A DNA stretch of 64,000 nucleotides from an uncultured Candidatus Saccharibacteria bacterium. GTDB lineage: Bacteria > Patescibacteriota > Minisyncoccia > Phycocordibacterales > CAYSCM01. Shown here piece after piece: positions 1-54,638 of the stretch. The notes beneath the pieces were generated by a model. The model saw only the letters and a list, made by a program, of their open reading frames with translations, ran no database searches and was not told the DNA's origin. The stretch is taken from assembly GCA_964429815.1 (NCBI GenBank), contig CAYSCM010000001.1, positions 192,001 to 256,000 on the forward strand, in the 5' to 3' direction. A program made the position numbers and the translations under genes. Position 1 is the stretch's first letter, and every line of letters starts with the position of its first letter.

Positions 1-381
1 GTACTTGAAACCGCCAAAGGTAATCATAAGAACGGCGAGAAGCGCTGCGATGCCAAGGCCAAAATCAAAAATAGTATTGAGGACACTACTGAGACTCCCG
101 TTGTTTTTTGTGTAAAGCCCTCCAATATTTTCAAGGGGGACGAAACCTTGAGAGCCGGTTACTTGTGTTCCTAAGGGAGTAGTTTGTAAGGGGGAAGCGT
201 CACCACATCCACCGGTTCCTTGTACATCAACGCAGGGTGTGCCCGATTGCGCTGGTTGAAGTGCAGAAGAACAATTTTCCGTATAGCCTCGAGAACAGGA
301 GTCTCCAGATTCTGCCTTAGAAAAGGCAAACGGCAGCATCAAAAGACAGAGAATGGAGATTATTATTTGTGACTTTCTCAT
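1..381 (-). CDS. partial CDS (runs off the window): secreted Cys-rich protein with N-terminal signal peptide and C-terminal hydrophobic helix; member of T4SS-like operon
   Basis: Manual minus-strand translation from ATG at 379-381: MRKSQIIISILCLLMLPFAFSKAESGDSCSRGYTENCSS...GLGIAALLAVLMITFGGFKY. The ORF is open to position 1. It is adjacent to the stop of the upstream gene at 383. Confidence 0.4.
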   Translation of the reverse strand, partial: MRKSQIIISILCLLMLPFAFSKAESGDSCSRGYTENCSSALQPAQSGTPCVDVQGTGGCGDASPLQTTPLGTQVTGSQGFVPLENIGGLYTKNNGSLSSVLNTIFDFGLGIAALLAVLMITFGGFKY

Positions 382-382
382 A

Positions 383-1402
383 TCATTTACCAAAGTTTAT
401 TTGAAGGGCTATCGATGTGGCCTGAAAAATTTGCGAAACATTTTGTAGCGAGAGAGCAAGATTTGCTGTGCCCGATGATGGGGCCGTCTGGCGCAGCACT
501 ACATCGGCCGGATTTTTACTCGAGGGAGTCACGCTCTTGTCATTGAGCGTCCAGGCGTAGGTGAGCGCTCCTCCGCCGCGGGAATCCGTCGAGAAAAAGT
601 ACGGGAAGGCGGAGACCGTCGCCTCGCTTTTAGTGAGATTGACACTTTCAGGAAGTGCCCGGTCGAAACGAAATCCTAGAAGTGGGTCGTTTTCATAGAG
701 GATGACGAATGGCTCGTCTCCGTTGAACGAGAGGGAACGAGTTGCTTTGATGGAACCATCCGAACTCGCTACGTCTACCGACACATTGATCCCGCGATAG
801 ACGCGGGCGCCGGGGATGGTAACGGACTGAGCGCCGCGCCCCGAAGAATCCCCCAGCACCTGGCCATTAAGGTGCCACGTGTAGAAAAGGGCCTCAGGCC
901 TGATGCGCGCGCCGTTCTCGTCTACGAAAAACGGCATCGCAAAGAGGACCATCGTGGCGTCATAGGGAGCGAGAGCTTTACCGCGGTAAAAGGGCGGGGT
1001 GTAGACATTCGCTTGCCACAGCAGATCAAGGCCTGCCGGGCGAACGATGGCTGTTTTGGTAAGGGTCGAGCCATTGGGGAGTGTTGCGTTAACGCGAAGC
1101 ACATTGATGCTTCCAATACCGCCAACCGTGAAGTGGGCCGTGACGACACCAACCCCTGAGTCAATGATCTTCCCGTTAAGGCTCCACACCAAGGTGGCGC
1201 GGGCAAGGTTTTCTGCGTAACTGGCGACCTGGGCCGATACGGCTTGACCCGCTCCGGGTACCTCAGGCGAGAGGGAGAGCGAAAAATCTCCTGGCACGGT
1301 GGGCAAATTTAGCTGTGCAAAGAGCGTTGTAGGGAGCGAAAGGGCCGCGACGAGGAGTGTCGTCGCGCAGAGGCCGCGCATGATTCGGGGGGAAATAGTC
1401 AT
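383..1402 (-). CDS. hypothetical secreted protein (signal peptide MRGLCATTLLVAALSLPTTLFAQ)
   Basis: 339-aa ORF. N-terminal signal peptide, beta-rich composition. Stop/start junction with the neighbouring gene at 1402 suggests translational coupling. Confidence 0.5.
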   Translation of the reverse strand: MTISPRIMRGLCATTLLVAALSLPTTLFAQLNLPTVPGDFSLSLSPEVPGAGQAVSAQVASYAENLARATLVWSLNGKIIDSGVGVVTAHFTVGGIGSINVLRVNATLPNGSTLTKTAIVRPAGLDLLWQANVYTPPFYRGKALAPYDATMVLFAMPFFVDENGARIRPEALFYTWHLNGQVLGDSSGRGAQSVTIPGARVYRGINVSVDVASSDGSIKATRSLSFNGDEPFVILYENDPLLGFRFDRALPESVNLTKSEATVSAFPYFFSTDSRGGGALTYAWTLNDKSVTPSSKNPADVVLRQTAPSSGTANLALSLQNVSQIFQATSIALQINFGK

Positions 1403-2016
1403 CAGGCTGCCTTCACTTTGGCTTGAGATTTATTATATTCCCTATCCTCCTGGTGAACGAGGCGGATTTCCGACCACACGCACATCGTCCATATAGGTAT
1501 TGCATTTAACCCAGGCGCTAATTTAACCGCGATGAGAATCAAATCTCGGATCGGGCGTTTTAGTGTCAAAAAGTTATGACCAGAAGTAGCAAACCATCCA
1601 ATGAAAATAAAGAAAATCACGATCGACAAAACCGTGTTGATGATGAGTCCAATGATGAGAAAGGTGAGAACAAGTTGGATAAGATCGAAAAACATCGCCA
1701 CTCCCATCATGGCCGCATACTGAAGTCCTCCGATGCGGTGACGTTTTTTTGCGGGTACGGAAACGCGTTGGGCCGTCGCCACTTGAGCGGGCTCCCGTGG
1801 TGAAACCCGCGTATATCCCGATGGCTGCCGTTGCCAAAACGCACGCTCTTGCGGGTCGAGTTCCTTACTCCCCATGCTCACCTTCGGGTTCCCGCCTATG
1901 CGAATGCCTCGCTTTACTCCTTCGGCTCGTAAGGCTTCGTATTCCTGTCGAGTCATGGAGGGATCCGCTCCAGCCGGAGGGGTCCACTTTTTTGATTGCG
2001 GGTCACGCGGAGGCAT
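1402..2016 (-). CDS. hypothetical membrane protein of T4SS-like operon
   Basis: 204-aa ORF with a basic N-terminus and 3-4 predicted TM helices (AAMMGVAMFFDLIQLVLTFLIIGLIINTVLSIVIFFIFIGWF). Lies immediately downstream of the VirB4-like gene. Confidence 0.45.
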   Translation of the reverse strand: MPPRDPQSKKWTPPAGADPSMTRQEYEALRAEGVKRGIRIGGNPKVSMGSKELDPQERAFWQRQPSGYTRVSPREPAQVATAQRVSVPAKKRHRIGGLQYAAMMGVAMFFDLIQLVLTFLIIGLIINTVLSIVIFFIFIGWFATSGHNFLTLKRPIRDLILIAVKLAPGLNAIPIWTMCVWSEIRLVHQEDREYNKSQAKVKAA

Positions 2017-2018
2017 GA

Positions 2019-3851
2019 CTATTTATTCGCCTCGGCCTCGAGCTCCTGGCGGGCCTTTTTAATAGCGAGAATTTGGCTCGGATCGGAGGTGATGATTTGA
2101 TCTTCGGTATAAGAGGCGATGATTTTGATGGCGACGTGTTTGAGGCCGGCAAAGAATATCCCCTCTCCCACGTCCGATTCCAGGAGCAGGTACTTTTCCT
2201 CGTCGGTGAGGTTAAACGTTTTCTGCACGTTGTCGATGGAGGTTGGCGATTGCTTCAGCAGCAGCTGAATGGAGGAGTTGGTTATCATAGGGAGCCCGTA
2301 GGGAGAGTTCAAGAAATCAGAAACGTCTTGCGTGATGGTGGCAAGACCCAGGAAGTATTTGCGCCCGCGTTTGGCGACCGAAAAGAGGAAACTCGCCGTA
2401 TCCTCGCTCTGCATCATCCAGTGCGCTTCATCGACGATAAAGAGGCGTTTCTTGAGCTCCTTGCGCACTGCGGTCCAGATGAAGTGCGTGACGATGTACA
2501 TGGCGACGGGCTTGAGCTCATCCTCCATGTCGCGCACGGAGAATACGACAAAATTTTTGTTGATATCGACATTGGTCGGGCGATTGATGAAACCTGCCCA
2601 CGTACCCTTGGTGTACTTGGAGAGGCGCTGCACGAGCGACTCGGAGCCTTCCATTCCGGCGAGCACGAGCTCGAAGTCGGAGAGGAGCGGCGGCTCGATG
2701 CTGGTGAAGTCGCTCTCCCCCGTTATGTCCTTGAGCGCATAGGTTTCCGTGATAGCCCGGTCGATGATGGAGTCTTCCTCCGGCGTTAGGCCGCCGAGCA
2801 TGATGCGGAACAGGCCCACGAGATTCACGATGTTGCTTCGAAGCACGTCGCCGGGAGCTTCGTCTTCCCGCGGGGTCGGCAGGTCGAAGGGGTTGATGTG
2901 GTGCTCGGAGGTGAGGGATATGTTGAAGTAGCGCCCACCGACGGCGTCCGCCATGTACTCGTACTCACGCTCAGGGTCGATGACAATGACCTCGGTGCCG
3001 AACATAAGGGAGCGCAAAATTTCGAGCTTTACCGCGTAGGATTTGCCGGCGCCGGATTTTGCGAACGTCACCGAGTTGTAGTTTTCGAGGCTAAAGCGAT
3101 CAAAGAGGATGAGGGAGCTGTTGTGGCGGTTGATGCCGTAGAGAATTCCCTTGTCGGAAGTGAGATCGAAGGAGACAAAGGGAAAGAGCGAGGAGAGCGG
3201 CGAGGAGTTGAGCTTCGTGTGCACGGAGAGCTCATCGGAGGCTATGGGAAGTACGGAGCGGAACCCCTGCTCCTGCTGAAAGAGCGCGGGCTTCACGTAG
3301 ATGAGGCGGCTCTCGAGCATGGTCTTTATCTCGCTCTCCACCTTGTCGAGCTCTTCCTGCGAGTTGCCATAGATAGAAATGTAAAGCCCGACATCGAAGA
3401 GTTTCTCTTGCGCCTGCTGGAGCTGGTCGCGGAGCGATTCAAGGTCACGATAGGCGGTGTCGAGCATTGGATCGCGCACGAGCCCGCGCTCCTCTCGGGT
3501 CGTGATCTGACTTTGCACCTCCGCGACCTTTTTTTGGAATTTCCGAAGCACTGTAGCGGTGTCCGCCGGATGCACGAATATGGATACGTCGAAGACCCGA
3601 TCGAGATTTATGATGGGAGCAAACCAGGAATCCGCGAGGTAGCGTGGGTAGGAAATAACAAATAGCGTGCGCACCAGCTTGTCGCCGAGATTCATCTCCC
3701 GCGGGGTGATCTTGAGCGCTGAAGGGGCGATGATGTCGTGGAACTCAAGCGCTCCCGCTTCATAGATTTCCTGCGGCAAAATGGGAGTGACCGGGACTTC
3801 CCTCCTCTTTTTCCCGCCCAAGCCTCCTGTGAGAAAATCAAGTAGAGCCAT
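2019..3851 (-). CDS. VirB4/TrbE/CagE-family type IV secretion ATPase
   Basis: 610 aa. Walker A FAKSGAGKSYAVK and Walker B FIVDEAHWMM. Length and domain order are typical of Gram-positive-type VirB4 (PrgJ/TcpF-like). Confidence 0.8.
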   Translation of the reverse strand: MALLDFLTGGLGGKKRREVPVTPILPQEIYEAGALEFHDIIAPSALKITPREMNLGDKLVRTLFVISYPRYLADSWFAPIINLDRVFDVSIFVHPADTATVLRKFQKKVAEVQSQITTREERGLVRDPMLDTAYRDLESLRDQLQQAQEKLFDVGLYISIYGNSQEELDKVESEIKTMLESRLIYVKPALFQQEQGFRSVLPIASDELSVHTKLNSSPLSSLFPFVSFDLTSDKGILYGINRHNSSLILFDRFSLENYNSVTFAKSGAGKSYAVKLEILRSLMFGTEVIVIDPEREYEYMADAVGGRYFNISLTSEHHINPFDLPTPREDEAPGDVLRSNIVNLVGLFRIMLGGLTPEEDSIIDRAITETYALKDITGESDFTSIEPPLLSDFELVLAGMEGSESLVQRLSKYTKGTWAGFINRPTNVDINKNFVVFSVRDMEDELKPVAMYIVTHFIWTAVRKELKKRLFIVDEAHWMMQSEDTASFLFSVAKRGRKYFLGLATITQDVSDFLNSPYGLPMITNSSIQLLLKQSPTSIDNVQKTFNLTDEEKYLLLESDVGEGIFFAGLKHVAIKIIASYTEDQIITSDPSQILAIKKARQELEAEANK

Positions 3852-3853
3852 AG

Positions 3854-4489
3854 CTATAGGTTCGCTGCGATCGGCTTTTCGAGCTCACCGGGGTTGAAGA
3901 GTTTGTAGTAAAGCTCGATGGCTTCCTCGGTGCCTAAGGTCGCGACCCTAACTCCGGTGCGCACGAGCCCTTGCTCGACGACCGCGACGCGTTGCTCAAG
4001 TTGGGTGCGGCTCTCTTCGAACGTCGCGGCGGCCTCCTCCTTCGTTTTTTTGCCGAAGCTCGGGAGCGTTGGGAGCCCGCTTTTTCCCACGGAGAGCACC
4101 GCCGGCGAGTACGGCACAACGATAAAGAAATTTTTCGTCATAATGTTGGCCTGCTCGACGAAGCTTTTTATGAAATCAATGTACTCGCGTGTCTGGATTT
4201 TCATAAGCTCGGTGGTCTGCTCTTTGTACTTTCCCTCAAGGAGCGCCACGTAGGGGCGGATATCGAGCTGGCGTGATTCGATGAATATCTGGATGGAAAA
4301 GTCGAGCGAGTTGAGGAAGTTTTGGAACTGCGCGAGGATGGCGGTCTGTTCGTCGGCGGATTTAAGCGCAAAATTGAGCGAGGAGGCGATGAGAATGGAG
4401 CGCAACCCTCCGTCCTTGAGGACCACGATGCCATCACGCACCTCCTTGATGGGCACGAACTCCTGGCTTGCTTTTCCGGCGACGGCCAT
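3854..4489 (-). CDS. hypothetical cytoplasmic protein between the PrgI-like and VirB4-like genes
   Basis: 211-aa ORF with no TM segment. Tightly packed in the operon (3-nt gap to virB4-like). Confidence 0.45.
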   Translation of the reverse strand: MAVAGKASQEFVPIKEVRDGIVVLKDGGLRSILIASSLNFALKSADEQTAILAQFQNFLNSLDFSIQIFIESRQLDIRPYVALLEGKYKEQTTELMKIQTREYIDFIKSFVEQANIMTKNFFIVVPYSPAVLSVGKSGLPTLPSFGKKTKEEAAATFEESRTQLEQRVAVVEQGLVRTGVRVATLGTEEAIELYYKLFNPGELEKPIAANL

Positions 4490-4495
4490 GGTGAT

Positions 4496-4939
4496 TTAGC
4501 GATAGGCGCCCGTTTTCTCCTTTATATCGAGGCTCCAGGCGAGATCCTTAAGTTTGCTCTCCGAGAGCTTAGGCACGACGATAGTCGCCTCCAGTTTCGT
4601 CTCCGGAGTGGCTTTTGCGGCGGCTTTGGGAACAACCTTTTTCCAGAGGTAGAGCCGGCCGCGCATCATGTAGTAGAAGGCCGCCTCGAGAGTCTCGATG
4701 AACGGACGATTATTTATCTTATAGAACGCAAGTGCAGCGGAAAGCGCGGCGACCGGAATACCAAGGAGTATCACGAGAAAAAGTGGCAGAAAAACGTAGA
4801 GAATGGCGATCACTCCTCCACCGCCGGCGAGGTAGACAAACTGGCGGAACGTGAGGGGCCCCACTATCTTGTCTTCCACCTCAATGAACTGCGGCACCTG
4901 GAACTGCATAGAAGTAGTATACCCCGCGCAAAGCCGCAT
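4496..4939 (-). CDS. PrgI-family (VirB3-like) small membrane protein; true start may be the internal MQFQVPQF
   Basis: 147-aa ORF. Motif VPQFIEVEDKIVGPLTFRQFVYL is followed by two TM helices. Sits immediately upstream of the VirB4-like gene, as in Gram-positive conjugation-type loci. Confidence 0.55.
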   Translation of the reverse strand: MRLCAGYTTSMQFQVPQFIEVEDKIVGPLTFRQFVYLAGGGGVIAILYVFLPLFLVILLGIPVAALSAALAFYKINNRPFIETLEAAFYYMMRGRLYLWKKVVPKAAAKATPETKLEATIVVPKLSESKLKDLAWSLDIKEKTGAYR

Positions 4940-4984
4940 CGCGGCTTTGCGCTGTAGATTCGGCGCGTACTACTATGAGTGCAT

Positions 4985-5273
4985 GAAATTCTATACGCCA
5001 AACTATGGAAACGCTTCACACGACGCCCGTCCGCAGTTTGAAATGCGCGGCAACGCCATCTACATCACCGCGCACCACCCCGGCTTTACCCCCAAAGGGG
5101 CGGTGCTCCCCTGGTATGAAAATAGGGGCGGGAAAGTCTATGCGACCGAGCATCACCCCGAGGGCAAATCACTCCATCCGGTCTATGAAATCCGGGGCGA
5201 TAGGGTGCACACTACGGTCGAACATTCTCAGCACGACCCACTACGCCACAGCTTTGAACTCCGCCTGCATTAA
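4985..5273 (+). CDS. possible small repeat protein (three degenerate ~22-aa repeats YExRG..(I/V)Y.T.HHP)
   Basis: Opposite-strand ORF in the 340-bp gap between operon genes. The protein repeats are FEMRGNAIYITAHHP, YENRGGKVYATEHHP and YEIRGDRVHTTVEHS. They arise from ~66-69-bp degenerate DNA tandem repeats that preserve the reading frame. No clear RBS. Confidence 0.25.
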
Positions 5274-5281
5274 AGCGAGTT

Positions 5282-5680
5282 CTATTTTTTTCGATATACA
5301 AATACTGACTTTATGCCGATGATGATCAGACTGATCAAGAAGAAAAGTATCGAGAGGAAGAACGAAATCCGCCCCTTGTCATTCGGAAACATCCAGTCAG
5401 TGCTGGTATTTGGCGCGATAAGTATCAACGCCACGGAGATTGCAAGAAACCACTGGGCAAAGCGGATCCACATTCGGAAAATTTCATCTCGGAGTTTATA
5501 GGTGACTAAACTCAAGATGAACAAAATTGGAAAAAACCTAAGTAAATCAATCAACCACAAAGTCTGATCTCTACAGAAAAAAAATTTATCTTGACATCCA
5601 TTACGAAGCACGAGGCTGAGAAGGATAAGAAACATTCCCGCGCCTATTCCGGAAAAAATTAAAAGAGTTTTTTTGGTCAT
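5282..5680 (-). CDS. hypothetical small membrane protein (about 4 TM)
   Basis: 132-aa hydrophobic ORF. Its stop abuts the next operon gene. Confidence 0.4.
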   Translation of the reverse strand: MTKKTLLIFSGIGAGMFLILLSLVLRNGCQDKFFFCRDQTLWLIDLLRFFPILFILSLVTYKLRDEIFRMWIRFAQWFLAISVALILIAPNTSTDWMFPNDKGRISFFLSILFFLISLIIIGIKSVFVYRKK

Positions 5681-5682
5681 AA

Positions 5683-8679
5683 CTATCTCAATCCTACCGT
5701 CACCGAATAGGTCTTTCCATCATCTAGCTGTGCAGACACTTTATACCAGTACCCAGGAGTAACCCCCTTCGTGTTCCAGTTGTAAATATATTGCCCTGGT
5801 GCCGAGTCCCAACGAAACTCACCTCCAGAGGTGCTGGGGTCGGAATATGTTGACTCATCGATGGCGGCAGTTAAAGTCGAGCCTTTAATCGGGGTAAGCC
5901 AAACTGGATTTTTACCTGCTTGTGCTAGCATTCCATTCACTTTCTTAAGTTGGAATTTTACCGGTACGGTACTTCCTCCTTTAAAAACGCTTAGAGACTG
6001 AGTGGGATTAATCGACGGGTCGTTTATTGGCTGGAGAAAACCGCTCCACCGATAGGTGATAGTCAGTGTGCCGACAATAAAAGAGGTGAATTGGTAGGTG
6101 CTCGAAGTTAAGGTGCCTATGGTGCAAATAATTGGATAAATTCCAATACCAGTTGTTGCTGTTGCCGTGGTTGAACATTGTGGAACCCCGGCAATGTCGT
6201 TGTGTGCCGCATCATCGCCATTTACAAATCCGCTGAAACTTACCGTAAAGGAAGGAATAGGAGAACCGAGCACGATGGTTTTATTATCCACGGTGACCGT
6301 AAGGGGATTGAAAACTACTAGTCCGTCCAACTTCGGAGTGAGAGAATAAACTGTAGTTCCGTCTCCGTTTACATCGAGTGAGAGAGGACTCGCGCCAGCG
6401 ATCGTCCCGTCAGAGAAATTCATAGTCGCGATGGTAGTTGTTGCCGAAGGAATGTCTGCGAACGTTGTTGTTGCAAGAATAGAATTCCCTTCAACCTCTT
6501 CTATTTTGAGAGTAAATCCTCCAGCCGATTCTCCTTCCAACCGCAGAGTCGGGAGGTCTTCTGCAGGGACACTCACGTATTTAATGTCACCAAACTCAGT
6601 GTACGTTGCTCCTGGGATGGTATTTTCAAGAATCCTTGTACTCGTTGCTAGTTTCAGGTGGTTCCCATTTTTATCATTGATCTCAATGGAAAGTGGTGAG
6701 TGCAGGAAGTATCTTAGACGCTTTTGAATTAAATGAGAGGGAACTTCTTTGGAGATGTATTGCGGTAGCTGTGCTGCGCTATTTATAATGATACCGTCAA
6801 TCAAATCGTTGAGTTGCCCAACTTCAAGGATGTCTGCGTGGTCTCTGCCCAAAGGAATAGTGAGTCGGTTGTCCTTATTGAACTGGTTCAAATCAACCCA
6901 ATATCTGCTCACGTTAGGCGAGCTCGTACTCATCGTGAGCGCACTTGGAGTGACTACAGTTCCGTCCCCATCGACAACGATGCCAAGGTCTTCGTCGAGA
7001 CATGGGTTGTACCTGAGACAATGGTAAAAGCCACCATTTCGATAAGAAATATTACCCACTGTTTCGTTGCCCCACCCCGCAATTTGATACAACTGAATTC
7101 CCGACGGTGGAACCCACGTATCGAGATGGCTATGCAGGACGTCAGCATCATTCAAGAGCAATGCATTACCGACGAGAGGATAGGTCACATTGGAAAATGA
7201 AGGCCCAGTTCGCCCCTCGATCCCCGAGACAAATGAAGCGAGCTCATTGAAAGTATTTATATTCGAGCCATAGGCGTCAGTAAATATTTTTGTCGTGCTG
7301 CCGCTCCGAAATGATATGGGTGGAGTAATCACATCACTCCCAGGCCCGTCAAAGTACGCTCGGGACGGGAGGAGGTTGTACACCATTGGAGAATTTTGTG
7401 CGAATGCGCGCGCCGTCGCCTCGCTTAGAACGAACCCCAAGGCATGTGATTGATTGGTTCCATCCAGGAGAGCCCCTACGGCGATAGGGGTCCCCGTTTG
7501 AGGAACGGCGACAAAAATAATCTTGTCGATAAGGGAGCTAGCTTCCGGACCGAGTATTTCCATCAATCTTTTGGCCAAAAGGCCCCCGTTGGAATGGGCG
7601 ATGATAGTGACTTTTCCGGTATTCGAGGTTCCGGCCAAGCGTCGAAGTTCCTGGAGTATGTACGGGGTCGTAGTGGAGCGGAGGTTTCCCGAATAGTAGA
7701 TATGATCGCCGACCTGATGCCCATACTTTAGAATATCATCGAGCGACAATCGCCAGTCATAAGCAGCCGGCAGCCAATCCTTGATCGTGCCGGCGGTTTT
7801 GAGTTGATCCATTTCACCGATAAAACTTTTGTAAATATTCGCTCCGGTCGGCAATTCGTCGATAACGTCGCCGATTTTTGTATATATATCGCCACGCACG
7901 CTTGAACCATCCGGATTCATGAAAAGATCCCGCGCATCGGCATTGCTGAAGGGCTCCCACAGTCTATCTTCCCCTCCGCCGTCGGCCGGGCGATATAAGC
8001 GACTTGCCTCTATGCCAGGCAAAAAGAGCACGTTTGAGTTGCTTTGCGTATTGATATTACTCGTTCCGAGTTCGTCATACATCAGAAGATCGCCCAGGTC
8101 TGGGCGTGCACCGAATTCTGCCGACAAAGCGACGGTGTCGATGAAATCTCCCGCCGCATGAGCCACGGCGCCTACCCACGAGCAGTGTCCAACATCAACA
8201 TCATCTTGCTGAAAACATGTTTCCTTGGCACCTACATGATCTCGCCATGCAAAAAGATATTGATGCCACTGTCCATCGAGAGGAGTAAATCTATTTCTGA
8301 ATTCACAATTGGTTGAAGCCGAAACATTCGGCGCACCGGTACAAAGTAAAACGATGCTGCCGTACCCAAATTGAGCCCATCCGCTCTGGGCTTTTGCGTA
8401 GAATGTGATGTTTCCTTCGGTTAACGGAGTCCCTGTTTTGTAAATTCTAGGAATTTGGAAAAGCACGGTACTTTGAAGACATTGACCGGAGATACACCCG
8501 CTGCTCACTTGGGTAAACGGGCCTACACTTCCACCGTACACGTTCCAGCCAAAGTATCCGAAGGGTAAATCGAAGGAGTCGGAGACGGGAGCGGCCGCAA
8601 ACGCGTGACTGCCGGAGAGAAGAAGAAAAAATAGTCCGAAAACGAAAACGAAGAGTCGCCAGTAGCGGACTTTTTTCAT
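5683..8679 (-). CDS. large secreted protein with LCAT/PDAT-like alpha/beta-hydrolase (phospholipase A/acyltransferase) domain and C-terminal beta-rich (Ig-like) region
   Basis: 998 aa. Signal peptide MKKVRYWRLFVFVFGLFFLLLSGSHAFAAAP. Motif LPAAYDWRLSLDD matches the AAPYDWRL signature of lecithin:cholesterol acyltransferase-family enzymes. GXSXG-type nucleophile elbow IIAHSNGGLL lies about 55 aa downstream of that motif. The C-terminal 350 aa is Thr/Ser/Gly/Val-rich. Confidence 0.65.
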   Translation of the reverse strand: MKKVRYWRLFVFVFGLFFLLLSGSHAFAAAPVSDSFDLPFGYFGWNVYGGSVGPFTQVSSGCISGQCLQSTVLFQIPRIYKTGTPLTEGNITFYAKAQSGWAQFGYGSIVLLCTGAPNVSASTNCEFRNRFTPLDGQWHQYLFAWRDHVGAKETCFQQDDVDVGHCSWVGAVAHAAGDFIDTVALSAEFGARPDLGDLLMYDELGTSNINTQSNSNVLFLPGIEASRLYRPADGGGEDRLWEPFSNADARDLFMNPDGSSVRGDIYTKIGDVIDELPTGANIYKSFIGEMDQLKTAGTIKDWLPAAYDWRLSLDDILKYGHQVGDHIYYSGNLRSTTTPYILQELRRLAGTSNTGKVTIIAHSNGGLLAKRLMEILGPEASSLIDKIIFVAVPQTGTPIAVGALLDGTNQSHALGFVLSEATARAFAQNSPMVYNLLPSRAYFDGPGSDVITPPISFRSGSTTKIFTDAYGSNINTFNELASFVSGIEGRTGPSFSNVTYPLVGNALLLNDADVLHSHLDTWVPPSGIQLYQIAGWGNETVGNISYRNGGFYHCLRYNPCLDEDLGIVVDGDGTVVTPSALTMSTSSPNVSRYWVDLNQFNKDNRLTIPLGRDHADILEVGQLNDLIDGIIINSAAQLPQYISKEVPSHLIQKRLRYFLHSPLSIEINDKNGNHLKLATSTRILENTIPGATYTEFGDIKYVSVPAEDLPTLRLEGESAGGFTLKIEEVEGNSILATTTFADIPSATTTIATMNFSDGTIAGASPLSLDVNGDGTTVYSLTPKLDGLVVFNPLTVTVDNKTIVLGSPIPSFTVSFSGFVNGDDAAHNDIAGVPQCSTTATATTGIGIYPIICTIGTLTSSTYQFTSFIVGTLTITYRWSGFLQPINDPSINPTQSLSVFKGGSTVPVKFQLKKVNGMLAQAGKNPVWLTPIKGSTLTAAIDESTYSDPSTSGGEFRWDSAPGQYIYNWNTKGVTPGYWYKVSAQLDDGKTYSVTVGLR

Positions 8680-8709
8680 CCGGGAAGCCTACCATTGTCC
8701 CGCTTAGAG

Positions 8710-8773
8710 TCAATGCATACCGTGGCGTGCATTGAATACTCAAATTATAAGCTATAGCTTATAATTTGAGTAT
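8710..8773. promoter_or_regulatory. two adjacent palindromes in the promoter region of the LCAT-like gene: 8710..8735 (8-bp arms TCAATGCA/TGCATTGA, 10-nt spacer) and a 38-bp perfect AT-rich palindrome 8736..8773
   Basis: ATACTCAAATTATAAGCTATAGCTTATAATTTGAGTAT checked base by base as a perfect inverted repeat. It is AT-rich in a GC-rich background. It lies 57 bp upstream of the 5683..8679 start. Confidence 0.5.
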
Positions 8774-8829
8774 GGTGTTTTTCTGCTGCACACCGCTCTG
8801 AGCCTACAACGACATCTGGTCGGGTCTGA

Positions 8830-9732
8830 TTAGGAGAGGGGTTCGCGGTAGGGGTCGACTTTTGGCTTTTCAGGACCTGCGGAGGCGGAGGGGCCTATCG
8901 GTGGCACGATTTTTTTCTCCTGCATCGGGGAGCGCACCTGGCTTTGGAGCTTCGCCGCGGTGAAGTCTTGTCCAAAAGTGCGAAGTGGGGGAAGTGAGCT
9001 TTCCTGCACCGGCGCTCCCACCACCGGCCCTCTATTAATAGAGGGGGTCGGGGCAGGTTGCGGTGCGACCAGAGATGTGGCTTTTGTCGGAGCTGAGGAG
9101 ACCGAGGCCGGACGGACGGGAATTTCTGGCGTCTTTTGAAGAGCAGCTATCGCGTCGGCGAGAGCTTCTCTGCCGCCGGGCGCCGTCGAGGGGCGCGCAG
9201 GAATTGAACTCGAAAGTGGAGGTTTTGTCTGGGGAGGGGGCGGGGCTTGCCTTGGTACTTGCTCCCCAGGTGGCCTTTGTGGTTGCGGGGTTTGCGTCGC
9301 GGGTTGCGGTCGTGGTGTTTGTTGGGGTGCGGCTCCTCCTTCCCCACCGCGGGCATGTGCGAAGGGGGCGGATTGAAGGGAGGGCGTTATATCTCCTTTG
9401 AGAGGAGTTTGTTTTGAGGGTTCCTCGGTAATTTTTTTAAGAGAGTCGCGAATGGGTTTAAAAATCTGTTCATTAACATCCAGAACAACCGAGCCGACTT
9501 TTTCTACAGGAAAACCACGTTTTCGAAGTTCATCTGGTAGTACCTCAGCCTTAATTTCTCCAAGAATGACTAGCGTGATTACATCACTAAGAAGACCAAC
9601 CTTATCAATGAGTAGCGCCTGTTTCCTACCAATGGCTTGAATAGCTTCTGTTACTTTCTCAGAAAAAAGAACGTCTTGGAGTTCTGAAGGAAGTTGGAAT
9701 ATCCGTCTTATTTTTTGCTTAGTATCGATCAT
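8830..9732 (-). CDS. hypothetical protein with long Pro/Gln/Ala-rich low-complexity C-terminal half
   Basis: 300-aa ORF. N-terminal globular part (about 110 aa), then PQPATQTPQPQRPPGEQVPRQAPPPPQTKPP-type proline-rich tract. Confidence 0.45.
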   Translation of the reverse strand: MIDTKQKIRRIFQLPSELQDVLFSEKVTEAIQAIGRKQALLIDKVGLLSDVITLVILGEIKAEVLPDELRKRGFPVEKVGSVVLDVNEQIFKPIRDSLKKITEEPSKQTPLKGDITPSLQSAPFAHARGGEGGAAPQQTPRPQPATQTPQPQRPPGEQVPRQAPPPPQTKPPLSSSIPARPSTAPGGREALADAIAALQKTPEIPVRPASVSSAPTKATSLVAPQPAPTPSINRGPVVGAPVQESSLPPLRTFGQDFTAAKLQSQVRSPMQEKKIVPPIGPSASAGPEKPKVDPYREPLS

Positions 9733-9737
9733 ACTTC

Positions 9738-12182
9738 TTATGGAATCCTACCGAGAGTGTGGAAGAGACGTCCCCCTTGGCTATTTCCAAAGTTTGCTAG
9801 CGCAAGTATGGCAGGATCGGTCGCACCCGCGTTTCGGCGATTAATTACTTCTTGCATAATGGCATTACCAGCACCCACATCAGCGCCTGCTTTCATCATT
9901 TCTCGAAGCGCTTCTTGTTTTAGGTGAGGAACAAGCTCGGGAAGGAGGGTGGCTCTCGTACTTGAATCGTCATAGAGACCCAGCGCCATTTTGGCCATTG
10001 CCTTGGGATCAACCCGCAACTTCTTAATATCCGTACCAAAGGTTCCAATCGCTCCATGGCCCAGAGACTCTTTAAGGAAATCCCCTCGCTGTTTACCAAG
10101 TGCCGCTTTAATACTGGCGGCGATCTTGTCGCTTTTCATAACCTCGTCGTATTTATCCTGGGACAGTGTCCTCGCCAAGGTGTCGATTTGTCCAGCGAGG
10201 GCCTTTTCAGTAATTATGAGCTCGAGCTCTTTATTGTTTACCTTGTCGAATTTCTTTATTAACTCCTCGTCTTCCGCTGAAAGATGGCCAGGAATTGCGG
10301 CCGCTGCCGCACGTGCAGCATTTTCCAGAAGTTCTTTGTGACGAGCGGTGGTTACTTTATCGCGCATTTCGTCGGTGTACTTATCATTTTTCACATCAGA
10401 TATGGATAGATACTGTGAAGAGGTAAGATTCTTCGCTACCCAGTCTTTTGTCAAAGTCTTCACCCCCAAAGAGGCCAGCTGCGTATCACTCATCGCACCA
10501 AGAGCTCGAAGACCTTTTGCTTCAGCTTCTTGTTTTTGTGCGTCTGTGTATTTTGTTGGATTCTCACTGATCTCAATCGCGCGCTCAATGTCGTCGCGGA
10601 AGTCTGCCTCCCTGCGTACCGCAGCACGCCCGAGCTTTTCCTTCTTAACCTCTTCCTTGATCGCGACTCCTGATTTAGTCGTTCCAAACTTAGCACCTGC
10701 AATTAGGCCGGTGGTGTACTTGCGGGCAAGGGAACCCAACTGGGTCCCACCAATAAGGCGTGACTGAGCGAGCCTTTGATCAAGGTTCGCAATGGGCCTG
10801 CCAATTGCATTGCGGGCCAGGAAGCCACCGCCGTATTTGCCGATAGATTTTACAGTAAAGTTGATTGCATTCAGGCCTTCATTGCCAATTTTTTTTGCAA
10901 CCGATAGGGTTAGAAGTGATAATCCAATAACAACTGCAAAGTTTATTAGCAATTGGATTGATCCGGGGGCAGTAGCCGCCGAGCTTCCGTCCGCTAGGTC
11001 CGCAAACGTTCCATTACCAATAGCGGTTTGAAATGCTGGATTTTTCATTACACCCAACACGAACCACAATAATCCAAAGTAGGCCGGTAGCATTATCGCA
11101 TTTGACCAAAGCGCCCCCCACCACTGGTTCCATAGTCCACCGAAGAAGGGTAAAAAACGAGCAAGCACAGCTAACGGAGAGGTGACCATTAGCACAAGGA
11201 ATACAATAATTCGCCCAATTATATGTAAAGCAGCGATGAGGAATGAATAGGCAAGGATTATAAAGAGAATGCAGCCAAGCATACTCAAAAGAAAACTATT
11301 GCCATTACTGAGCAGGGCGGCCGCCCTACTGCCGGTGAAGTTTTTCAAATCATATAAAGACCCCATCCGTAAAACTTGCATAAACTGTCCCGATAGCCCG
11401 ACATCCGAGTTTAGAAATTGATCAGTCTGCCCCTTCGCAAGTAACTGAGTGTAGAACTGTGTTGAAATATAATTACTTGCATCGATTACGACCCTTGTTA
11501 GAGCGAAGCTAAAATTTATCAGTAACGCCGCTATTACCACGTTCGCCAAAAGTTTTTTTGCCCCGTATTGTTGTACCCGCAATATGGTGGAAATGCCGAT
11601 AATCAAAAGGCTGAAAATAAGAACAATATTCGCCACATCACGAATGGTCATCCAAAATCCGTCGAGAGTACCGAAGGTCTTTATTGTTGTTCCAAAGTCA
11701 AGAACACCCCACACCACCACCTTGTTCAAGAAGAACCCGGCAACTCCCAGAATCCAAGCAAACAAGGTTAGGAATGCGTACCCAATACATCCGATGGAAA
11801 TATCAGGAATAAAGCCGACGTACGGGTCACAGTTGGGTGGCTTACTTCGTATATCGTCACCCTTTTTCTTTGAGGCATCGGCTGCTTGTGTATCGGTACT
11901 TTCCCTTACGTCTGCATCACTCACAGCGTCACCCTTTACGGTAATTAAGGAACCATCGGCCGCACGATAAAAATACGGATCAGTTATGTTTTTCCCTGGG
12001 CCAAGCAATGTATAGGTCTTTCCATTCCAAGTGCAAGCTGGGGGGTAGTTGTTTGCGCCAGTGGCTGTGCAAAGAGGGTCCGCGGCGAGAGCAACTTCTG
12101 TATGTAGTGAAAAGCCATACCCAACCACAAAAGACTTTAAGATGAAAATTGTGAGTAGTAATGTTGAAACAGCTTTTCTCAT
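9738..12182 (-). CDS. VirB6/TrbL-like polytopic membrane protein with signal peptide, extracellular N-domain, about 8 TM helices and 380-aa hydrophilic C-terminal tail
   Basis: 814 aa. Topology (signal peptide, about 8 TM helices, long charged Lys/Glu-rich tail) resembles conjugation-channel VirB6/TrbL proteins. Assignment is by architecture and context, not by a signature motif. Confidence 0.45.
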   Translation of the reverse strand: MRKAVSTLLLTIFILKSFVVGYGFSLHTEVALAADPLCTATGANNYPPACTWNGKTYTLLGPGKNITDPYFYRAADGSLITVKGDAVSDADVRESTDTQAADASKKKGDDIRSKPPNCDPYVGFIPDISIGCIGYAFLTLFAWILGVAGFFLNKVVVWGVLDFGTTIKTFGTLDGFWMTIRDVANIVLIFSLLIIGISTILRVQQYGAKKLLANVVIAALLINFSFALTRVVIDASNYISTQFYTQLLAKGQTDQFLNSDVGLSGQFMQVLRMGSLYDLKNFTGSRAAALLSNGNSFLLSMLGCILFIILAYSFLIAALHIIGRIIVFLVLMVTSPLAVLARFLPFFGGLWNQWWGALWSNAIMLPAYFGLLWFVLGVMKNPAFQTAIGNGTFADLADGSSAATAPGSIQLLINFAVVIGLSLLTLSVAKKIGNEGLNAINFTVKSIGKYGGGFLARNAIGRPIANLDQRLAQSRLIGGTQLGSLARKYTTGLIAGAKFGTTKSGVAIKEEVKKEKLGRAAVRREADFRDDIERAIEISENPTKYTDAQKQEAEAKGLRALGAMSDTQLASLGVKTLTKDWVAKNLTSSQYLSISDVKNDKYTDEMRDKVTTARHKELLENAARAAAAAIPGHLSAEDEELIKKFDKVNNKELELIITEKALAGQIDTLARTLSQDKYDEVMKSDKIAASIKAALGKQRGDFLKESLGHGAIGTFGTDIKKLRVDPKAMAKMALGLYDDSSTRATLLPELVPHLKQEALREMMKAGADVGAGNAIMQEVINRRNAGATDPAILALANFGNSQGGRLFHTLGRIP

Positions 12183-13840
12183 ATCGTTTGTTGTTGCGGG
12201 AAGGCGTAGCAGGCATCGAGCCTCTGCAAGGCGTCCTGAATGAGCGGATTTATTTCGGCGAGCATGTCGGACTGCTCTTGCTGCGCTGTTGCGATATCGG
12301 CATCGGAGGGGAGCGCGCCGGAGGATGTGAGTGCAGTGAACTGGGCCGAAGCGGCATCGAGCTCGTCGGGAGAAGTTGCATTCTGTATCTGGGATTCAAG
12401 TTGATACGCCTGGTTGATAGCACCCTGTGTTTTGGCGATTTGAGCCGAGAGAGCCACCTTCTTGGTCGTGACGAGGCTCGCCTGCGTCGTCGAGGCGGCG
12501 AGAATGCTTCGCTGCGCCGTCGCTAGGTCGGTGGAGCTGAGGGAAGAGCTGGCAATTTTGTTCCGGTAACAGTCAATGAGGCTCCCGAAATCGCTGTCGG
12601 CGATGAGCACTTGGTTTAGCGTCGCCTGCTTGACGCTTATGTACTGCTGGGCTTTAGCGATCGAGACATCGACGAGCGAGAGACCCGCACTTTGACGCCC
12701 CGAAATTTCTGCTGATTGCGCGTTGGCGACGTAGACGTCAAGTGCGGTACCGCCGCCAAACTGGCCGTTTTGCGTCGAGAGACCCTTGACGCCGCCGAGC
12801 GCGAGAAGGCCTTGCTTGATGAGCTGTCCGACGAGCGCGGAGATGATGGAGTTTATGTCATTGGCGAGCTCGAGCTGGTCTATATCGGTGCCTAGGACTT
12901 TTGAGAGCTGATCTTGTATCGCCGCTCCCGGGGTGACGATGGTGCAATTTGCTTTCGGGTCCGTTTTATAAGGATCTTGTCCAGGATAGTAGGTCGTGAA
13001 GGTGCCGCCGGTGCCGCTTGTTCCGTCGCTGTAGGTGGTTATAGGTGATTGGCTGCTGCACTGTTTGAACGAGAAGAAGCCGCGGCCGAACTCAAGAAGC
13101 TTCGTGTTGGTGTACTGCGCGCTCGCGATACGCACGGAGAGCTCGCTCTGTGCCATGAGGTAGGAGCCATAGGGATTGTTTTGCGGATTGGTTGTCATCG
13201 CAAACCACGCGGGCCAACCGCCGGCAGCAAAATTCGTGAACGCACTGTTGACGTTTCCGACGACGCTTGAGAGTGTGCAGCGCGCTTTGTTTTGGTACGG
13301 TTGGAAATTAAGCGCGAGCGCGACGCGCACCTGGAGCTGAAAGGGGGAACACAGGAATGAGAGTTCGGAGCCGTAAATAAATTCTCCTATCACCTGGTCG
13401 GCGACGTTGGTGAGGAATCCTTGAAGGTCGGTGACGAAGGCGGGATTCCCCTGAAAGCCGTTGTTTATCCAATTGACGATGCTTCTGGTGAGCTGCGCAA
13501 GGAGCGTCTTGGCGATGAGGATGATGATGGGCTTAATAACACAGTCATGAATGGTCGCGCTTTCGGTCGCGCCCTGGATGCCACCGCTCGCGATATGGAG
13601 ATACTTGTCTACGGCTGGGACATCAGCAGCTTGAAGTCCTATAGAACTGACCCCCGTTGCCTTGCCCTGAATAAGGGAGCTTAGGCAGAAAGCCGTATCG
13701 GGGCCGGCGGGAGTCTGAGCACTCGCCCTCTGGGGGAAGAAAGAAATAGCGGCAGCCCATGGCGCCAGAAGCACGACGAGGAGGAGCCCGGCGATTTGCC
13801 TTTGCATTGAGCCACGGATTGTAGAAATAAGCCCCCTCAT
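12179..13840 (-). CDS. hypothetical secreted protein (553 aa, signal peptide) of T4SS-like operon
   Basis: Signal peptide IAGLLLVVLLAPWAAAISFFPQRASAQ. Gln/Ala/Ser-rich C-terminal half. Start overlaps the stop of the upstream gene by 4 nt. Confidence 0.45.
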   Translation of the reverse strand: MRGLISTIRGSMQRQIAGLLLVVLLAPWAAAISFFPQRASAQTPAGPDTAFCLSSLIQGKATGVSSIGLQAADVPAVDKYLHIASGGIQGATESATIHDCVIKPIIILIAKTLLAQLTRSIVNWINNGFQGNPAFVTDLQGFLTNVADQVIGEFIYGSELSFLCSPFQLQVRVALALNFQPYQNKARCTLSSVVGNVNSAFTNFAAGGWPAWFAMTTNPQNNPYGSYLMAQSELSVRIASAQYTNTKLLEFGRGFFSFKQCSSQSPITTYSDGTSGTGGTFTTYYPGQDPYKTDPKANCTIVTPGAAIQDQLSKVLGTDIDQLELANDINSIISALVGQLIKQGLLALGGVKGLSTQNGQFGGGTALDVYVANAQSAEISGRQSAGLSLVDVSIAKAQQYISVKQATLNQVLIADSDFGSLIDCYRNKIASSSLSSTDLATAQRSILAASTTQASLVTTKKVALSAQIAKTQGAINQAYQLESQIQNATSPDELDAASAQFTALTSSGALPSDADIATAQQEQSDMLAEINPLIQDALQRLDACYAFPQQQTI

Positions 13841-14805
13841 GAAGAAAGCGTAAGCTTGAGGTTATTCACGAGCATAAAGCTTCCTAGGGTGCGGAAGGAC
13901 TGGTTGAGCGCGGCTTCTCGCGCCTCATAGCCGCTCATGGCGACGAAGGCGACGAGAGGGTCGGTCGCGATGGTCTCGAGGTCGGCGAGCGTTGCCTTCA
14001 TGCCCGAGAGAGCGTTGAGGAGTCCCACATGTGCCGAAAGTGCGTCGCGCGGAACGTTCATCGACACGAGCGCGCGGATACTTTCCCCATAGAGCGCGAC
14101 GTCGTGCTTGTAGGTCATCATCCCGTTTGGATCTTGACCGCTGATGGCATTCTGGAGCGTGAGAAGCTCGTACTCTTTGATGGAAAGGACCGGTGCGAGC
14201 GCGGCGCTGAGGGCACGGTTGTATGCGGCAAGCGTCGACGATGAGGTGCCGGTGACGGAAACGTCGCCGGCTGCGTACACCGTTGGTTTGGTCGCGACGT
14301 TGCCGCTTGCGGCTACGGCATTGACGACCGCCTGCTCATCCTCGGGGGTGAGCGTCTGGCCGCCCTGCTTTTTGCTCAAATAATTTTTGAACAGATTGAT
14401 GGCAAGCGCGTCGGTGTTGCTGAGGCCATTGCCGGGGGCGGTACGAGCGGTAAGGTCGAGCGTCGATCCTGGAGACGTGACAGACGGACTTTTTCCCTCC
14501 CCCGGTGTGAGAGGGTCGCGGCCCTGCGCGACTTCCTGTCCGTCGGAGACCCCGTCGCCGTCGGTGTCGGGATTGTGCGGATCGGTGCCGCGGAGTTGTT
14601 CTTCCCAGTCGGGAAGGCCGTCCCCGTCACTGTCCTTACTTGCCGACGCTATAAGAGCGCTACTTATAGCATCTTCCGAGCTCGCAAGTGAGGGGGAGGA
14701 TGGGGTTTTTGGTTGTAGGAGCGTGAAAAAGGCGACTAAGGCGACGAAAAGAGCCACCACAATGAAAACAAGTACCAGCCCTCTGCTTGGTAGCCACTTG
14801 TACAC
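13837..14805 (-). CDS. membrane-anchored protein with thrombospondin-type-3-like calcium-binding repeats
   Basis: 322 aa. N-terminal TM helix LVLVFIVVALFVALVAFFTLL, then DSDGDGLPDWEE and DTDGDGVSDGQE repeats of DxDxDG type. Confidence 0.45.
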   Translation of the reverse strand: MYKWLPSRGLVLVFIVVALFVALVAFFTLLQPKTPSSPSLASSEDAISSALIASASKDSDGDGLPDWEEQLRGTDPHNPDTDGDGVSDGQEVAQGRDPLTPGEGKSPSVTSPGSTLDLTARTAPGNGLSNTDALAINLFKNYLSKKQGGQTLTPEDEQAVVNAVAASGNVATKPTVYAAGDVSVTGTSSSTLAAYNRALSAALAPVLSIKEYELLTLQNAISGQDPNGMMTYKHDVALYGESIRALVSMNVPRDALSAHVGLLNALSGMKATLADLETIATDPLVAFVAMSGYEAREAALNQSFRTLGSFMLVNNLKLTLSS

Positions 14806-14898
14806 ACCTTAAGTATAAGCGCCGACCCTGTAATCCCTCGCTATTTTGCTGTGAATACCGGCGCACGTTCCACAGGAATGAGCTATAGTTGGCTTATC

Positions 14899-15381
14899 AT
14901 GCGGAAAATCTCCCGTCTTGGAATCGTGACGCTCCTCCTCGGGGCATTTTTGCTTACGTTTTCGCCACTTTCCGGCGTTTTTGCTAAAACAGGCATGAGT
15001 ACAAACAAGGCATCGACGTTCGGCTTTATAGGGCTTGGAGCGTTAGGGCTTGGCATAGGAGCGTCTTTGTTTGGGAGCGGAGCGGGAACGGTAGCGAACG
15101 CACCAGCCGCCATCACCGCCTTCGGTGGGCTTATAACTAAAATAGTCCCTTGCACGAACGGCGGCTTCTGGATGCTTGTTGCCCAACCTCCCCCGAAACA
15201 ACCGACCATCCAAGCTCTGATCTGGACCCCCGCTACGCGGACTTATTTGTGGGGCCCTCCCCGCAAGGTGGGGCAATGGGTACTCGGCCGCTACGATATC
15301 CCCTACGCGTGCACCCAAGGACCACACATCCCAGCGCTCTATGGCTTTCGCATGACTATGGTCGGAACAAGCGCTATCTAA
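14899..15381 (+). CDS. small secreted protein with two hydrophobic segments (pilin/VirB2-like topology; speculative)
   Basis: ORF 14851..15381, probably starting at internal MRKISRLGIVTLLLGAFLL. Signal peptide followed by a second hydrophobic stretch FGFIGLGALGLGIGASLFGSGAG. Divergent from the T4SS-like operon. Confidence 0.3.
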   Translation: MRKISRLGIVTLLLGAFLLTFSPLSGVFAKTGMSTNKASTFGFIGLGALGLGIGASLFGSGAGTVANAPAAITAFGGLITKIVPCTNGGFWMLVAQPPPKQPTIQALIWTPATRTYLWGPPRKVGQWVLGRYDIPYACTQGPHIPALYGFRMTMVGTSAI

Positions 15382-15392
15382 CTGGCAATTAT

Positions 15393-16172: not shown

Positions 16173-16173
16173 G

Positions 16174-18441: not shown

Positions 18442-18443
18442 GA

Positions 18444-54632: not shown

Positions 54633-54638
54633 ACGCCC

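Follow-up and report, generated by a model that had tools for sequence, protein, structure and literature searches.

What does a set of conjugation-type genes do on a chromosome where the genes for recruiting and processing DNA are not found beside it? The question is raised by a 64,000-nucleotide stretch of DNA, hereafter the window, from an uncultured Candidatus Saccharibacteria bacterium (assembly GCA_964429815.1, contig CAYSCM010000001.1, positions 192,001–256,000). Its ORF (open reading frame) list and translations show a tightly packed minus-strand gene run from position 14805 to position 1 that encodes parts of a type IV secretion system (T4SS). This region is very probably a chromosomal, origin-proximal T4SS of the patescibacterial kind. 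The overall best explanation, with a probability of about 85%, is a patescibacterial T4SS that serves as a pilus or contact machine and carries an inserted lipase module. The system itself is already published, and what goes beyond the literature is only the lipase insertion and a lead that connects the accessory protein SP553 with VirB5.

VirB4 is found in 2,417 of 3,035 patescibacterial genomes, nearly always in one clade nested within the MPF_FATA class (Quiñonero-Coronel et al. 2025, PMC12102498). Its neighbours are TrsD, the most abundant component beside it, PrgI, VirB6 and PF18895 pilins, and relaxases are rare there (PMC12102498). In Paceibacteria the genes dnaA, dnaN, rnpA and ksgA are frequent neighbours, and most patescibacterial genomes encode VirD4-like proteins, for the most part at a long distance from virB4 (PMC12102498). 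The Saccharibacteria counterpart has no recognisable coupling or relaxase proteins in its cluster and is essential, pilins included, for epibiotic growth, as found by transposon sequencing in S. epibionticum (Wang et al. 2023, PMC10633639). A perspective of 2024 calls the role of this T4SS completely unknown, and a review of 2025 lists the system within the T4SS superfamily, as a new member, and raises a pilus-like conduit as a speculation.

Secretion-system components of the cluster

The ATPase VirB4 (2019–3851, minus strand, 610 aa) matches the NCBIfam model conju_CD1110 at 374.2 bits against a curated cutoff of 325, over profile positions 184–733 of 752, and also Pfam P-loop_TraG at 78.3 bits. 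It has intact Walker motifs, A at residue 267 (GAGKS) and B at residue 472 (IVDEAH), and the nearest solved structure is 4ag5, the VirB4 of T. pseudethanolicus (E = 2.6e-41). The protein is 78–85% identical to its Paceibacteria relatives and 25% identical over 553 residues to PrgJ of plasmid pCF10 (tblastn, E = 3.7e-40). Its profile matches place it in the Gram-positive MPF_FATA / CD1110 type, and the match above the curated cutoff agrees with an earlier note on this DNA, which had named a Gram-positive-type VirB4.

The N-terminal domain that this VirB4 lacks is encoded next to it. A 211-aa ORF (3854–4489, minus strand) matches VirB4_plasma positions 104–233 (E = 1.1e-8) and CD1110 positions 2–118 (E = 2.1e-5), both below the curated cutoffs, and the TrsD/TraD model NF041427 (E = 5.7e-7, 29.5 bits with a curated cutoff of 200). 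The same gene on contig L082 of the same genome carries a precomputed match to Pfam PF26593 (TraC-like). On these matches it is identified as TrsD, the VirB4 N-domain as a separate gene. Because this ORF covers the profile N-terminus and the 610-aa protein covers CD1110 positions 184–733 only, VirB4 is split into TrsD and an ATPase body.

Upstream of trsD lies the gene of a two-helix membrane protein of PrgI/VirB3 type (4496–4939, minus strand), which scores 44.7 bits with PF12666 (cutoff 27). This is above the Pfam gathering cutoff and upholds the same assignment in the earlier note. The ATG at 4909 is the probable true start, and the orthologue in the closest relative has 137 aa.

The 814-aa polytopic protein (9738–12182, minus strand) consists of a signal or anchor, a ~95-aa extracytoplasmic segment with three Cys, ~7–8 hydrophobic segments and a helical 380-aa tail with 28% K/R/D/E, as read by hydropathy. 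The TrbL/VirB6 family PF04610 is matched by 7 of 52 orthologues, at best with E = 1.9e-7. The full alignment was swamped by the low-complexity tail when compared with the PDB, so the transmembrane (TM) domain alone was used, and the top match of its profile among 177,635 PDB sequences is TrwI, the VirB6 of R388 (7o3v_F). The evidence for a homologue of the "extended VirB6" sort is remote but consistent, and SEML1_0011 and 0013 of Saccharibacteria are analogous long VirB6-like proteins. A VirB6/TrbL-like protein with a 380-aa charged tail had been claimed before and gains remote support from the orthologues and TrwI.

The cluster gene at the left edge (1–393, minus strand) contains the N-terminal 131 codons of a 313-aa VirB2-like pilin and runs out of the window. 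The truncated ORF scores 18.4 bits with T4SS_pilin PF18895, and the full protein (L082:8385–9326) scores 28.5 bits with a gathering cutoff of 26.6. It has a signal peptide, a four-Cys module, a hydrophobic hairpin, a Thr/Pro-rich linker and two further four-Cys modules, and the window copy ends after the first hydrophobic helix of the hairpin. The pilins of related loci are 176–462 aa long with similar Cys modules. A pilus made of this protein would be decorated on its outside. The earlier note had missed both TrsD and the identity of the pilin; among its signal-peptide proteins the six leaders, the TSP3 domain and the lipase domain are confirmed, and its Cys-rich protein is the start of the pilin. 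The six N-terminal hydrophobic leaders are on minus-strand products and were read by hydropathy.

These parts resemble the Patescibacteria-clade T4SS known as SEML1_0006–0019 in its MPF_FATA VirB4, adjacent TrsD-like gene, PrgI/VirB3, long VirB6-like proteins and PF18895 pilin, in having no nearby relaxase or coupling protein, and in a chromosomal place near ksgA and dnaA. The Saccharibacteria gene table gives the order of long VirB6-like proteins, PrgI, a TrsD-like gene and VirB4. There are also differences. S. epibionticum has an array of six short pilins, whereas a single pilin with Cys-rich extensions is encoded here. No NTF2/VirB8-like gene, adjacent peptidase or lysozyme is recognised in the present cluster, which has instead six conserved Paceibacteria-specific genes (TSP3, SP553, Pro300, TM204, SP339 and a TolB-like gene) and the lineage-specific lipase insertion.

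Conjugation systems share less. The Prg/Pcf system of pCF10 in Enterococcus faecalis has the same order of VirB6-like (PrgH), PrgI and VirB4 (PrgJ) and is likewise of monoderm type without an outer-membrane core. However, it has PcfC (VirD4), the PcfG relaxase, the PrgK hydrolase, the VirB8-like PrgL and the PrgB adhesin, none of which is found here, and it has no pilin and no split of VirB4 into TrsD and ATPase body. The Trs system of Staphylococcus pGO1 has a small protein of the TrsD/TraD family, encoded separately and related to the N-terminus of VirB4, but belongs to conjugative plasmids with relaxase and coupling protein. The Gram-negative VirB/Trw systems (A. tumefaciens VirB, R388 Trw, pKM101 Tra) have the VirB2, VirB3, VirB4 and VirB6 set too; unlike them, the present system is without a VirB7/VirB9/VirB10 core and VirB11, its pilin has 313 aa with extra domains and its cell is expected to be monoderm. 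The system appears to descend from Gram-positive MPF_FATA mating-pair machinery; its parts for the membrane and for pilus assembly have been retained, and those that process DNA and recruit substrates have been lost.

Conservation and chromosomal setting

Related loci were gathered by scanning species-representative genomes (185,579), which gave 600 candidate stretches; 579 were confirmed and the best 80 were kept. All ORFs of these 80 loci were then searched with profiles to obtain the gene counts, which are given per eligible loci. The 80 loci are all in metagenome-assembled genomes of Patescibacteria, and the finer names among them are Kaiser-, Campbell-, Taylor-, Nomura-, Adler- and Wolfebacteria or the labels Paceibacteria/Parcubacteria. 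Judged by such sequence relatives, the patescibacterial T4SS is present here in its Paceibacteria (Parcubacteria, Kaiserbacteria-like) form.

Eleven genes make up the cluster, with order and strand fixed in 74–100% of eligible loci. The first is that of the TSP3 protein, TSP3_322 (13837–14805, minus strand as are all eleven), which is kept in 53 of 54 loci and overlaps the next gene by 4 bp. SP553 follows (12179–13840; 53/54), then the VirB6-like gene (58/59) and Pro300 (8830–9732), which is kept in 65 of 70 loci and always between the VirB6-like gene and PrgI. PrgI is retained in 70 of 72, TrsD in 76 of 76 and VirB4 in all 80. Downstream of virB4 are TM204 (1402–2016), in the same position in 54 of 73 loci, SP339 (383–1402; 70/71), the pilin (60/65) and finally a 422-aa TolB-like anchored protein (60/61).

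In the closest relative the accessory proteins are 57–64% identical and the synteny is the same from PNPase to the pilin. The preserved order and strand argue for strong purifying selection on the whole 11-gene set, as far as sequence comparison can tell. The earlier note had pointed to synteny with Patescibacteria T4SS loci as a check, and it is this 11-gene order that is shared.

Conservation bears directly on whether the locus is left over from an old conjugative system and is decaying without a present function. Such a remnant could account for the missing DNA-transfer parts and for a VirB4 in two ORFs. However, all ORFs and the ATPase motifs are intact, the TrsD/VirB4 split is kept in 76 of 76 loci, the 11-gene order has survived across dozens of species with very small genomes and the Saccharibacteria counterpart is essential. 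We give decay almost no credence.

Within the window there are 12 co-directional genes in two coupled blocks, and their junctions are mostly overlaps or gaps of 2–6 bp. The run is interrupted after Pro300, by a gap of 150 bp with a 38-bp palindrome in it, and before PrgI, by a gap of 372 bp with an opposite-strand gene for a 96-aa protein. At least thirteen co-directional coupled genes had been counted in the earlier note; the packed minus-strand run stands, but with 12 genes in two blocks, and 14851–15381 is on the opposite strand.

The cluster extends two genes beyond the left window edge, onto contig L082, where the stretch that follows the pilin is L082:9328–13083. Its last gene ends ~2 kb from dnaA, which is ~4 kb past the edge, with the opposite-strand genes jag, yidC and rnpA in between; a related locus has dnaA and dnaN in the equivalent position. 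On the other side ksgA is one gene upstream, and KsgA and PcrA are upstream in most loci. The flanks are housekeeping genes in synteny across species, with PNPase, ComM, PcrA and KsgA upstream and rnpA, yidC, jag, dnaA and dnaN downstream. The cluster is chromosomal, ancient in its class and adjoins the replication origin.

Missing parts and the function of the machine

Pfam scans covered 40 ORFs of the 64-kb window, including all of at least 300 aa except KsgA, PcrA, ComM and PNPase, which were identified by reading their translations. No VirD4/TraG coupling protein, relaxase or VirB11 was found in these 40 ORFs. Six-frame tblastn with PcfC and PcfG of pCF10 over all 64 kb gave nothing (best E = 0.25–0.39), where the VirB4 query from pCF10 found the window VirB4 at 3.7e-40. 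In the 4.3 kb beyond the edge there is no precomputed Pfam family of type IV coupling protein (T4CP), relaxase or VirB11, the Pfam scan there being only of the pilin and the 422-aa protein. These searches sustain the earlier statement that VirD4, relaxase and VirB11 are not visible in the window. Nothing follows from the absence of VirB11, which is not among the listed components of Gram-positive-type T4SSs.

An ordinary conjugative or integrative element, with relaxase and coupling protein just outside the window, would explain why VirB4, PrgI and TrsD are homologous to Gram-positive plasmid conjugation proteins, and a tyrosine recombinase is encoded at 30221–31132. We tried the recombinase as the integrase of an integrative conjugative element and rejected it; it lies 15 kb away among housekeeping genes and has a XerC/D-like look. 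VirD4 and a relaxase immediately upstream had been named in the earlier note as what would overturn its view, and what lies upstream is KsgA, PcrA, ComM and PNPase. The window searches for relaxase and T4CP are negative, the housekeeping flanks are in cross-species synteny and VirB4 is ~80% identical across species at a fixed chromosomal site, unlike a mobile element. Such an element is very improbable.

In Gram-negative systems VirB2, VirB3, VirB4, VirB5 and VirB6 form the pilus-assembly subset. VirD4 is needed for substrate recruitment and not for pilus biogenesis, and VirD4 and relaxase together recruit DNA. Since a VirB2/3/4/6-type set is conserved here and no DNA-processing or coupling genes are nearby, we infer a pilus or contact conduit. 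As a set, the parts suit a machine that builds a pilus for host contact better than they suit conjugation. By analogy with those systems, building a pilus or contact structure is somewhat favoured as the main activity. That the locus is unlikely to be conjugative, and that an uptake or host-interaction apparatus of episymbiotic bacteria fits better, was already the view of the earlier note; it is supported, equals the published view and is therefore not new.

Such a machine could work as follows. The Sec pathway would insert or export the pilin and the leader-bearing accessory proteins. A VirB4 hexamer, held to the membrane by PrgI and TrsD on a VirB6-like platform, would pull pilin out of the membrane. 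The pilin would then polymerise into a surface filament or conduit whose subunits have Cys-rich modules at both ends. The TSP3 protein, SP553 (possibly VirB5-like), SP339 and the TolB-like propeller may be wall-spanning, tip and adhesion parts. The filament would touch the host bacterium and support the exchange of molecules rather than conjugative DNA export.

Several points weigh against this pilus or contact machine. The functional evidence comes from S. epibionticum rather than from any Paceibacteria, and a pilus has yet to be observed. The window shows only 64 kb, and a coupling protein is possibly encoded elsewhere in the genome. The placement of VirB4 in the Patescibacteria clade is by similarity alone. 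The VirB6 assignment is remote, with a profile E-value of only 0.0015 for TrwI, and the 814-aa window protein has no direct Pfam or NCBIfam match. No VirB8-like or VirB1-like gene is recognised inside the cluster. We also compared the families with the single pCF10 proteins PrgC–PrgM by hhalign, where the positive control of PrgI against PrgI reached a probability of 7.5%, so the negatives for PrgF, PrgL and PrgK are uninformative.

A different use of the same parts is the export of effectors, with the coupling protein elsewhere or dispensed with, as in Bordetella Ptl and Brucella VirB. Protein exporters without T4CP exist, patescibacterial genomes commonly have VirD4-like genes at other sites, and the present copy of the cluster includes a secreted lipase; effector delivery has also been proposed for Saccharibacteria (PMC10633639). 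On the other hand, the cluster has no conserved candidate effector. Its lipase does not count as a conserved substrate, since none of the 80 related loci has it and its leader is of the Sec type. The distant t4cp gene of S. epibionticum is not essential while the T4SS genes are (PMC12102498). Effector export is unlikely as a separate account; it shares ground with the best explanation and does not exclude the pilus model.

The known systems with a comparable gene content are Bordetella Ptl, Brucella VirB and H. pylori ComB, which have no adjacent VirD4 and no relaxase. They differ in being diderm MPF_T systems with full VirB7–10 cores and in having known cargo (toxin, effectors, DNA).

ComB brings up the import of host DNA, for nucleotides or recombination, by a DNA-uptake machine like it or like the archaeal Ced. 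ComB is not known to have a coupling protein, a relaxase or VirB11, which counts for this account. The perspective of 2024 puts the T4SS forward as a candidate means of acquiring nucleotides, and T4SS loci of the class ABY1 are often found with comF, recG and radA (PMC12102498). A ComM/YifB-like ATPase of the Mg-chelatase family (22984–24558, minus strand) is in kept synteny 8 kb upstream and RecJ (62320–64000, plus strand) is in the window; DNA-processing genes like these are often linked to transformation, but both appear to be ordinary housekeeping neighbours here. No ComB7–10 or CedA/CedB-type family is matched, and the CedD model gives 14.7 bits against a cutoff of 600. Moreover, transformation of S. 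epibionticum needs type IV pili and ComEC. Deletion of comEC there abolishes competence and not viability, whereas the T4SS is essential; hence the essential role of the T4SS is not ComEC-linked DNA uptake. We consider DNA uptake improbable.

Two other genes of the window touch on the surface and the wall of the cell. An M23 peptidase with two LysM domains is encoded at 21508–22425 (plus strand), 6.7 kb upstream of the cluster, and its synteny is kept in the closest relative. M23/LysM domains are present in some VirB1-like proteins (PMC12102498). The peptidase is possibly a wall-opening helper, or equally an ordinary division hydrolase.

Type IV pilus genes at 52881–55853 (plus strand) encode PilB (T2SSE with MshEN, 414 bits) and PilC (T2SSF) and make up a second surface-filament system. 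PilB (52881–54632) is the sole member of the secretion-ATPase superfamily noted in the window besides the cluster. It was considered as VirB11 and rejected, as its MshEN N-domain and its place beside PilC assign it to type IV pili. Two large ORFs that follow PilB and PilC (458 and 403 aa; 57224–59891) have no Pfam match.

The lipase module, the accessory proteins and their meaning

The inserted module consists of Lip998, a 998-aa leader-bearing LCAT-like hydrolase (5683–8679, minus strand), and TM132, a 132-aa protein with four TM helices by hydropathy (5282–5680, minus strand). Lip998 matches Pfam LCAT PF02450 at 47.2 bits (cutoff 21), MBG_2 at 57.5 bits and NCBIfam PxKF at 97.9 bits; sequence and profile searches against the PDB gave no match. 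The residues H362-S363-x-G365-G366 (AHSNGG), D572 (GDGTV) and H614 are invariant in 44 homologues. Because the Ser, Asp and His are invariant across homologues, Lip998 is probably active as an enzyme. Given its Sec-type leader, its export would be independent of the T4SS. The family has at least 1,386 relatives, which are mostly unnamed, and those named by source are nearly all patescibacterial.

Lip998 and TM132, 3.4 kb together, are found in none of the 80 related T4SS loci. At the Pro300/PrgI junction the closest relative has a 23S_rRNA_IVP-family gene and a gene for a 96-aa His-rich protein instead of the lipase. Lipase homologues in two other genomes (L086:8001–11348 and L087:8001–12002) lie among housekeeping genes and are followed by a TM132-like small membrane protein. 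As lipase and TM132-like pairs recur in unrelated contexts across Patescibacteria, the two genes look like a mobile two-gene module. By sequence comparison this module is not a component of the system; it has entered the cluster of this lineage at a junction that varies. The TM132-type protein may act as a partner in the membrane or give self-protection. GC content is 0.49 for Lip998 and 0.39 for TM132 against a window mean of 0.54, which is weak evidence as the VirB6 gene is also at 0.47.

A perfect AT-rich palindrome of 38 bp (8736–8773, no strand), which reads ATACTCAAATTATAAGC TATA GCTTATAATTTGAGTAT, lies between Pro300 and the lipase, where the insertion has its upstream edge. The palindrome is unique in the window, and none is expected by chance. 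In an independent Logan assembly (SRR12313482) two contigs end on either side of the gap with the palindrome. The palindrome, or strain variation at the edge of the insertion, could have caused this break. The palindrome itself could be an operator, an insertion scar or an assembly obstacle.

Terminator-like sites are somewhat enriched (27 against 18.9 ± 4.7 expected), and the palindrome is one of them. Promoter-like sites are not enriched, with 9 found and 11.6 expected in shuffled sequence, and an Rfam scan of 1–16200 gave no match.

Among the conserved accessory proteins, TSP3_322 matches TSP3_bac (PF18884) at 49.9 bits (cutoff 25) and has an N-terminal membrane anchor, calcium-binding TSP3 repeats and a C-terminal domain of ~200 aa without a family. 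SP339 (339 aa) was modelled by AlphaFold2 with a mean predicted local distance difference test score (pLDDT) of 89.3, as an N-terminal leader or anchor helix and three tandem Ig-like beta-sandwiches. Its Foldseek matches in the PDB are generic multi-Ig adhesins and S-layer proteins (NCAM Ig1–3, SbsB, Hoc), and it has no Pfam or NCBIfam family. The model suggests that SP339 is probably a surface scaffold or adhesin. We had considered it as a VirB8 analogue, which the Ig-like sandwiches in place of an NTF2 fold rule out.

SP553 (553 aa, leader-bearing, secreted or anchored) has a conserved Cys-containing middle and a long, confidently predicted C-terminal helical bundle, and it matches no family. 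Its own family contains 5,514 cluster representatives at E ≤ 1e-10, without annotation. Some members are fused to discoidin and Ig-like domains, and these fusions in a few members fit an extracellular location. The best Foldseek match in the PDB has E = 0.13, and the profile matched coiled-coil noise only among PDB sequences. SP553 is, as a lead only, a candidate VirB5-like component with a possible link to the TraC/VirB5 fold.

TM204 (204 aa), directly after virB4, has a charged N-terminal part and 2–3 TM helices by hydropathy; its 36 members have no Pfam match and no PDB sequence match. Pro300 (300 aa), defined by orthologue conservation, combines a conserved N-terminal domain of ~100 aa with a Pro-rich tail that is probably disordered, and matches no Pfam or NCBIfam family. 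The 422-aa membrane-anchored protein after the pilin (on L082) has TolB beta-propellers as the best PDB matches of its family profile (E = 8e-4). The earlier note had seen no described counterparts for the accessory proteins. This is right for the C-terminal part of the TSP3 protein, SP553, Pro300 and TM204, whereas SP339 is a generic triple Ig-like protein and the lipase belongs to a large annotated family.

Two plus-strand genes accompany the cluster. One (4983–5273, a gene call on L082) lies between the blocks just upstream of prgI and encodes a His-rich protein of 96 aa, in which a motif like HP.G.S..P.YEIRG..V..T occurs in three repeats. The protein has no Pfam match, is absent from the 80 GTDB loci and is not a recognised T4SS part; a similar 96-aa ORF is at the same place in the closest relative (L084:15274–15564). 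The other (14878–15381, a gene call on L081) sits between ksgA and the TSP3 gene, is transcribed divergently from the cluster and encodes a putative small secreted protein of 167–176 aa with a signal-like leader. Its homologues have the same position and the opposite strand in 20 of 52 eligible loci, and it has no Pfam match.

Further upstream, between the M23/LysM peptidase and pcrA, 18148–21134 (minus strand) encodes a highly charged low-complexity protein of 896 aa without a Pfam match and then an acidic protein of 97 aa. These two genes look like a second lineage-specific insertion, as they are absent at that position in the closest relative (L083/L084).

A bolder account joins these pieces. 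The six conserved Paceibacteria genes would be the missing envelope-spanning and tip parts of a monoderm T4SS that forms a pilus, with SP553 as a VirB5-like nucleator or tip adhesin. The mobile lipase module, with its LCAT-like enzyme as a phospholipase, would have been taken into the operon of this lineage, so that the harvesting of lipids from the host membrane is co-expressed with host contact. We regard it as quite unlikely in this full form.

The locus gives a clean statement of the Paceibacteria type, with 11 syntenic genes at the replication origin, six of them without an assigned role. Such well-resolved loci help to define the parts list of a T4SS that is essential in the one species tested. 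In SP553 the locus also offers a testable VirB5-like candidate, a partner of the kind that a pilus of VirB2 type would need, and its secreted LCAT-like lipase module, inside the cluster, is an example from a large family in lipid-auxotrophic bacteria. The current picture is unchanged, with sharper targets for tests. If the six conserved genes and the lipase do act as proposed, this would bear on the role of the T4SS and on the lipid supply of the lipid-auxotrophic Patescibacteria.

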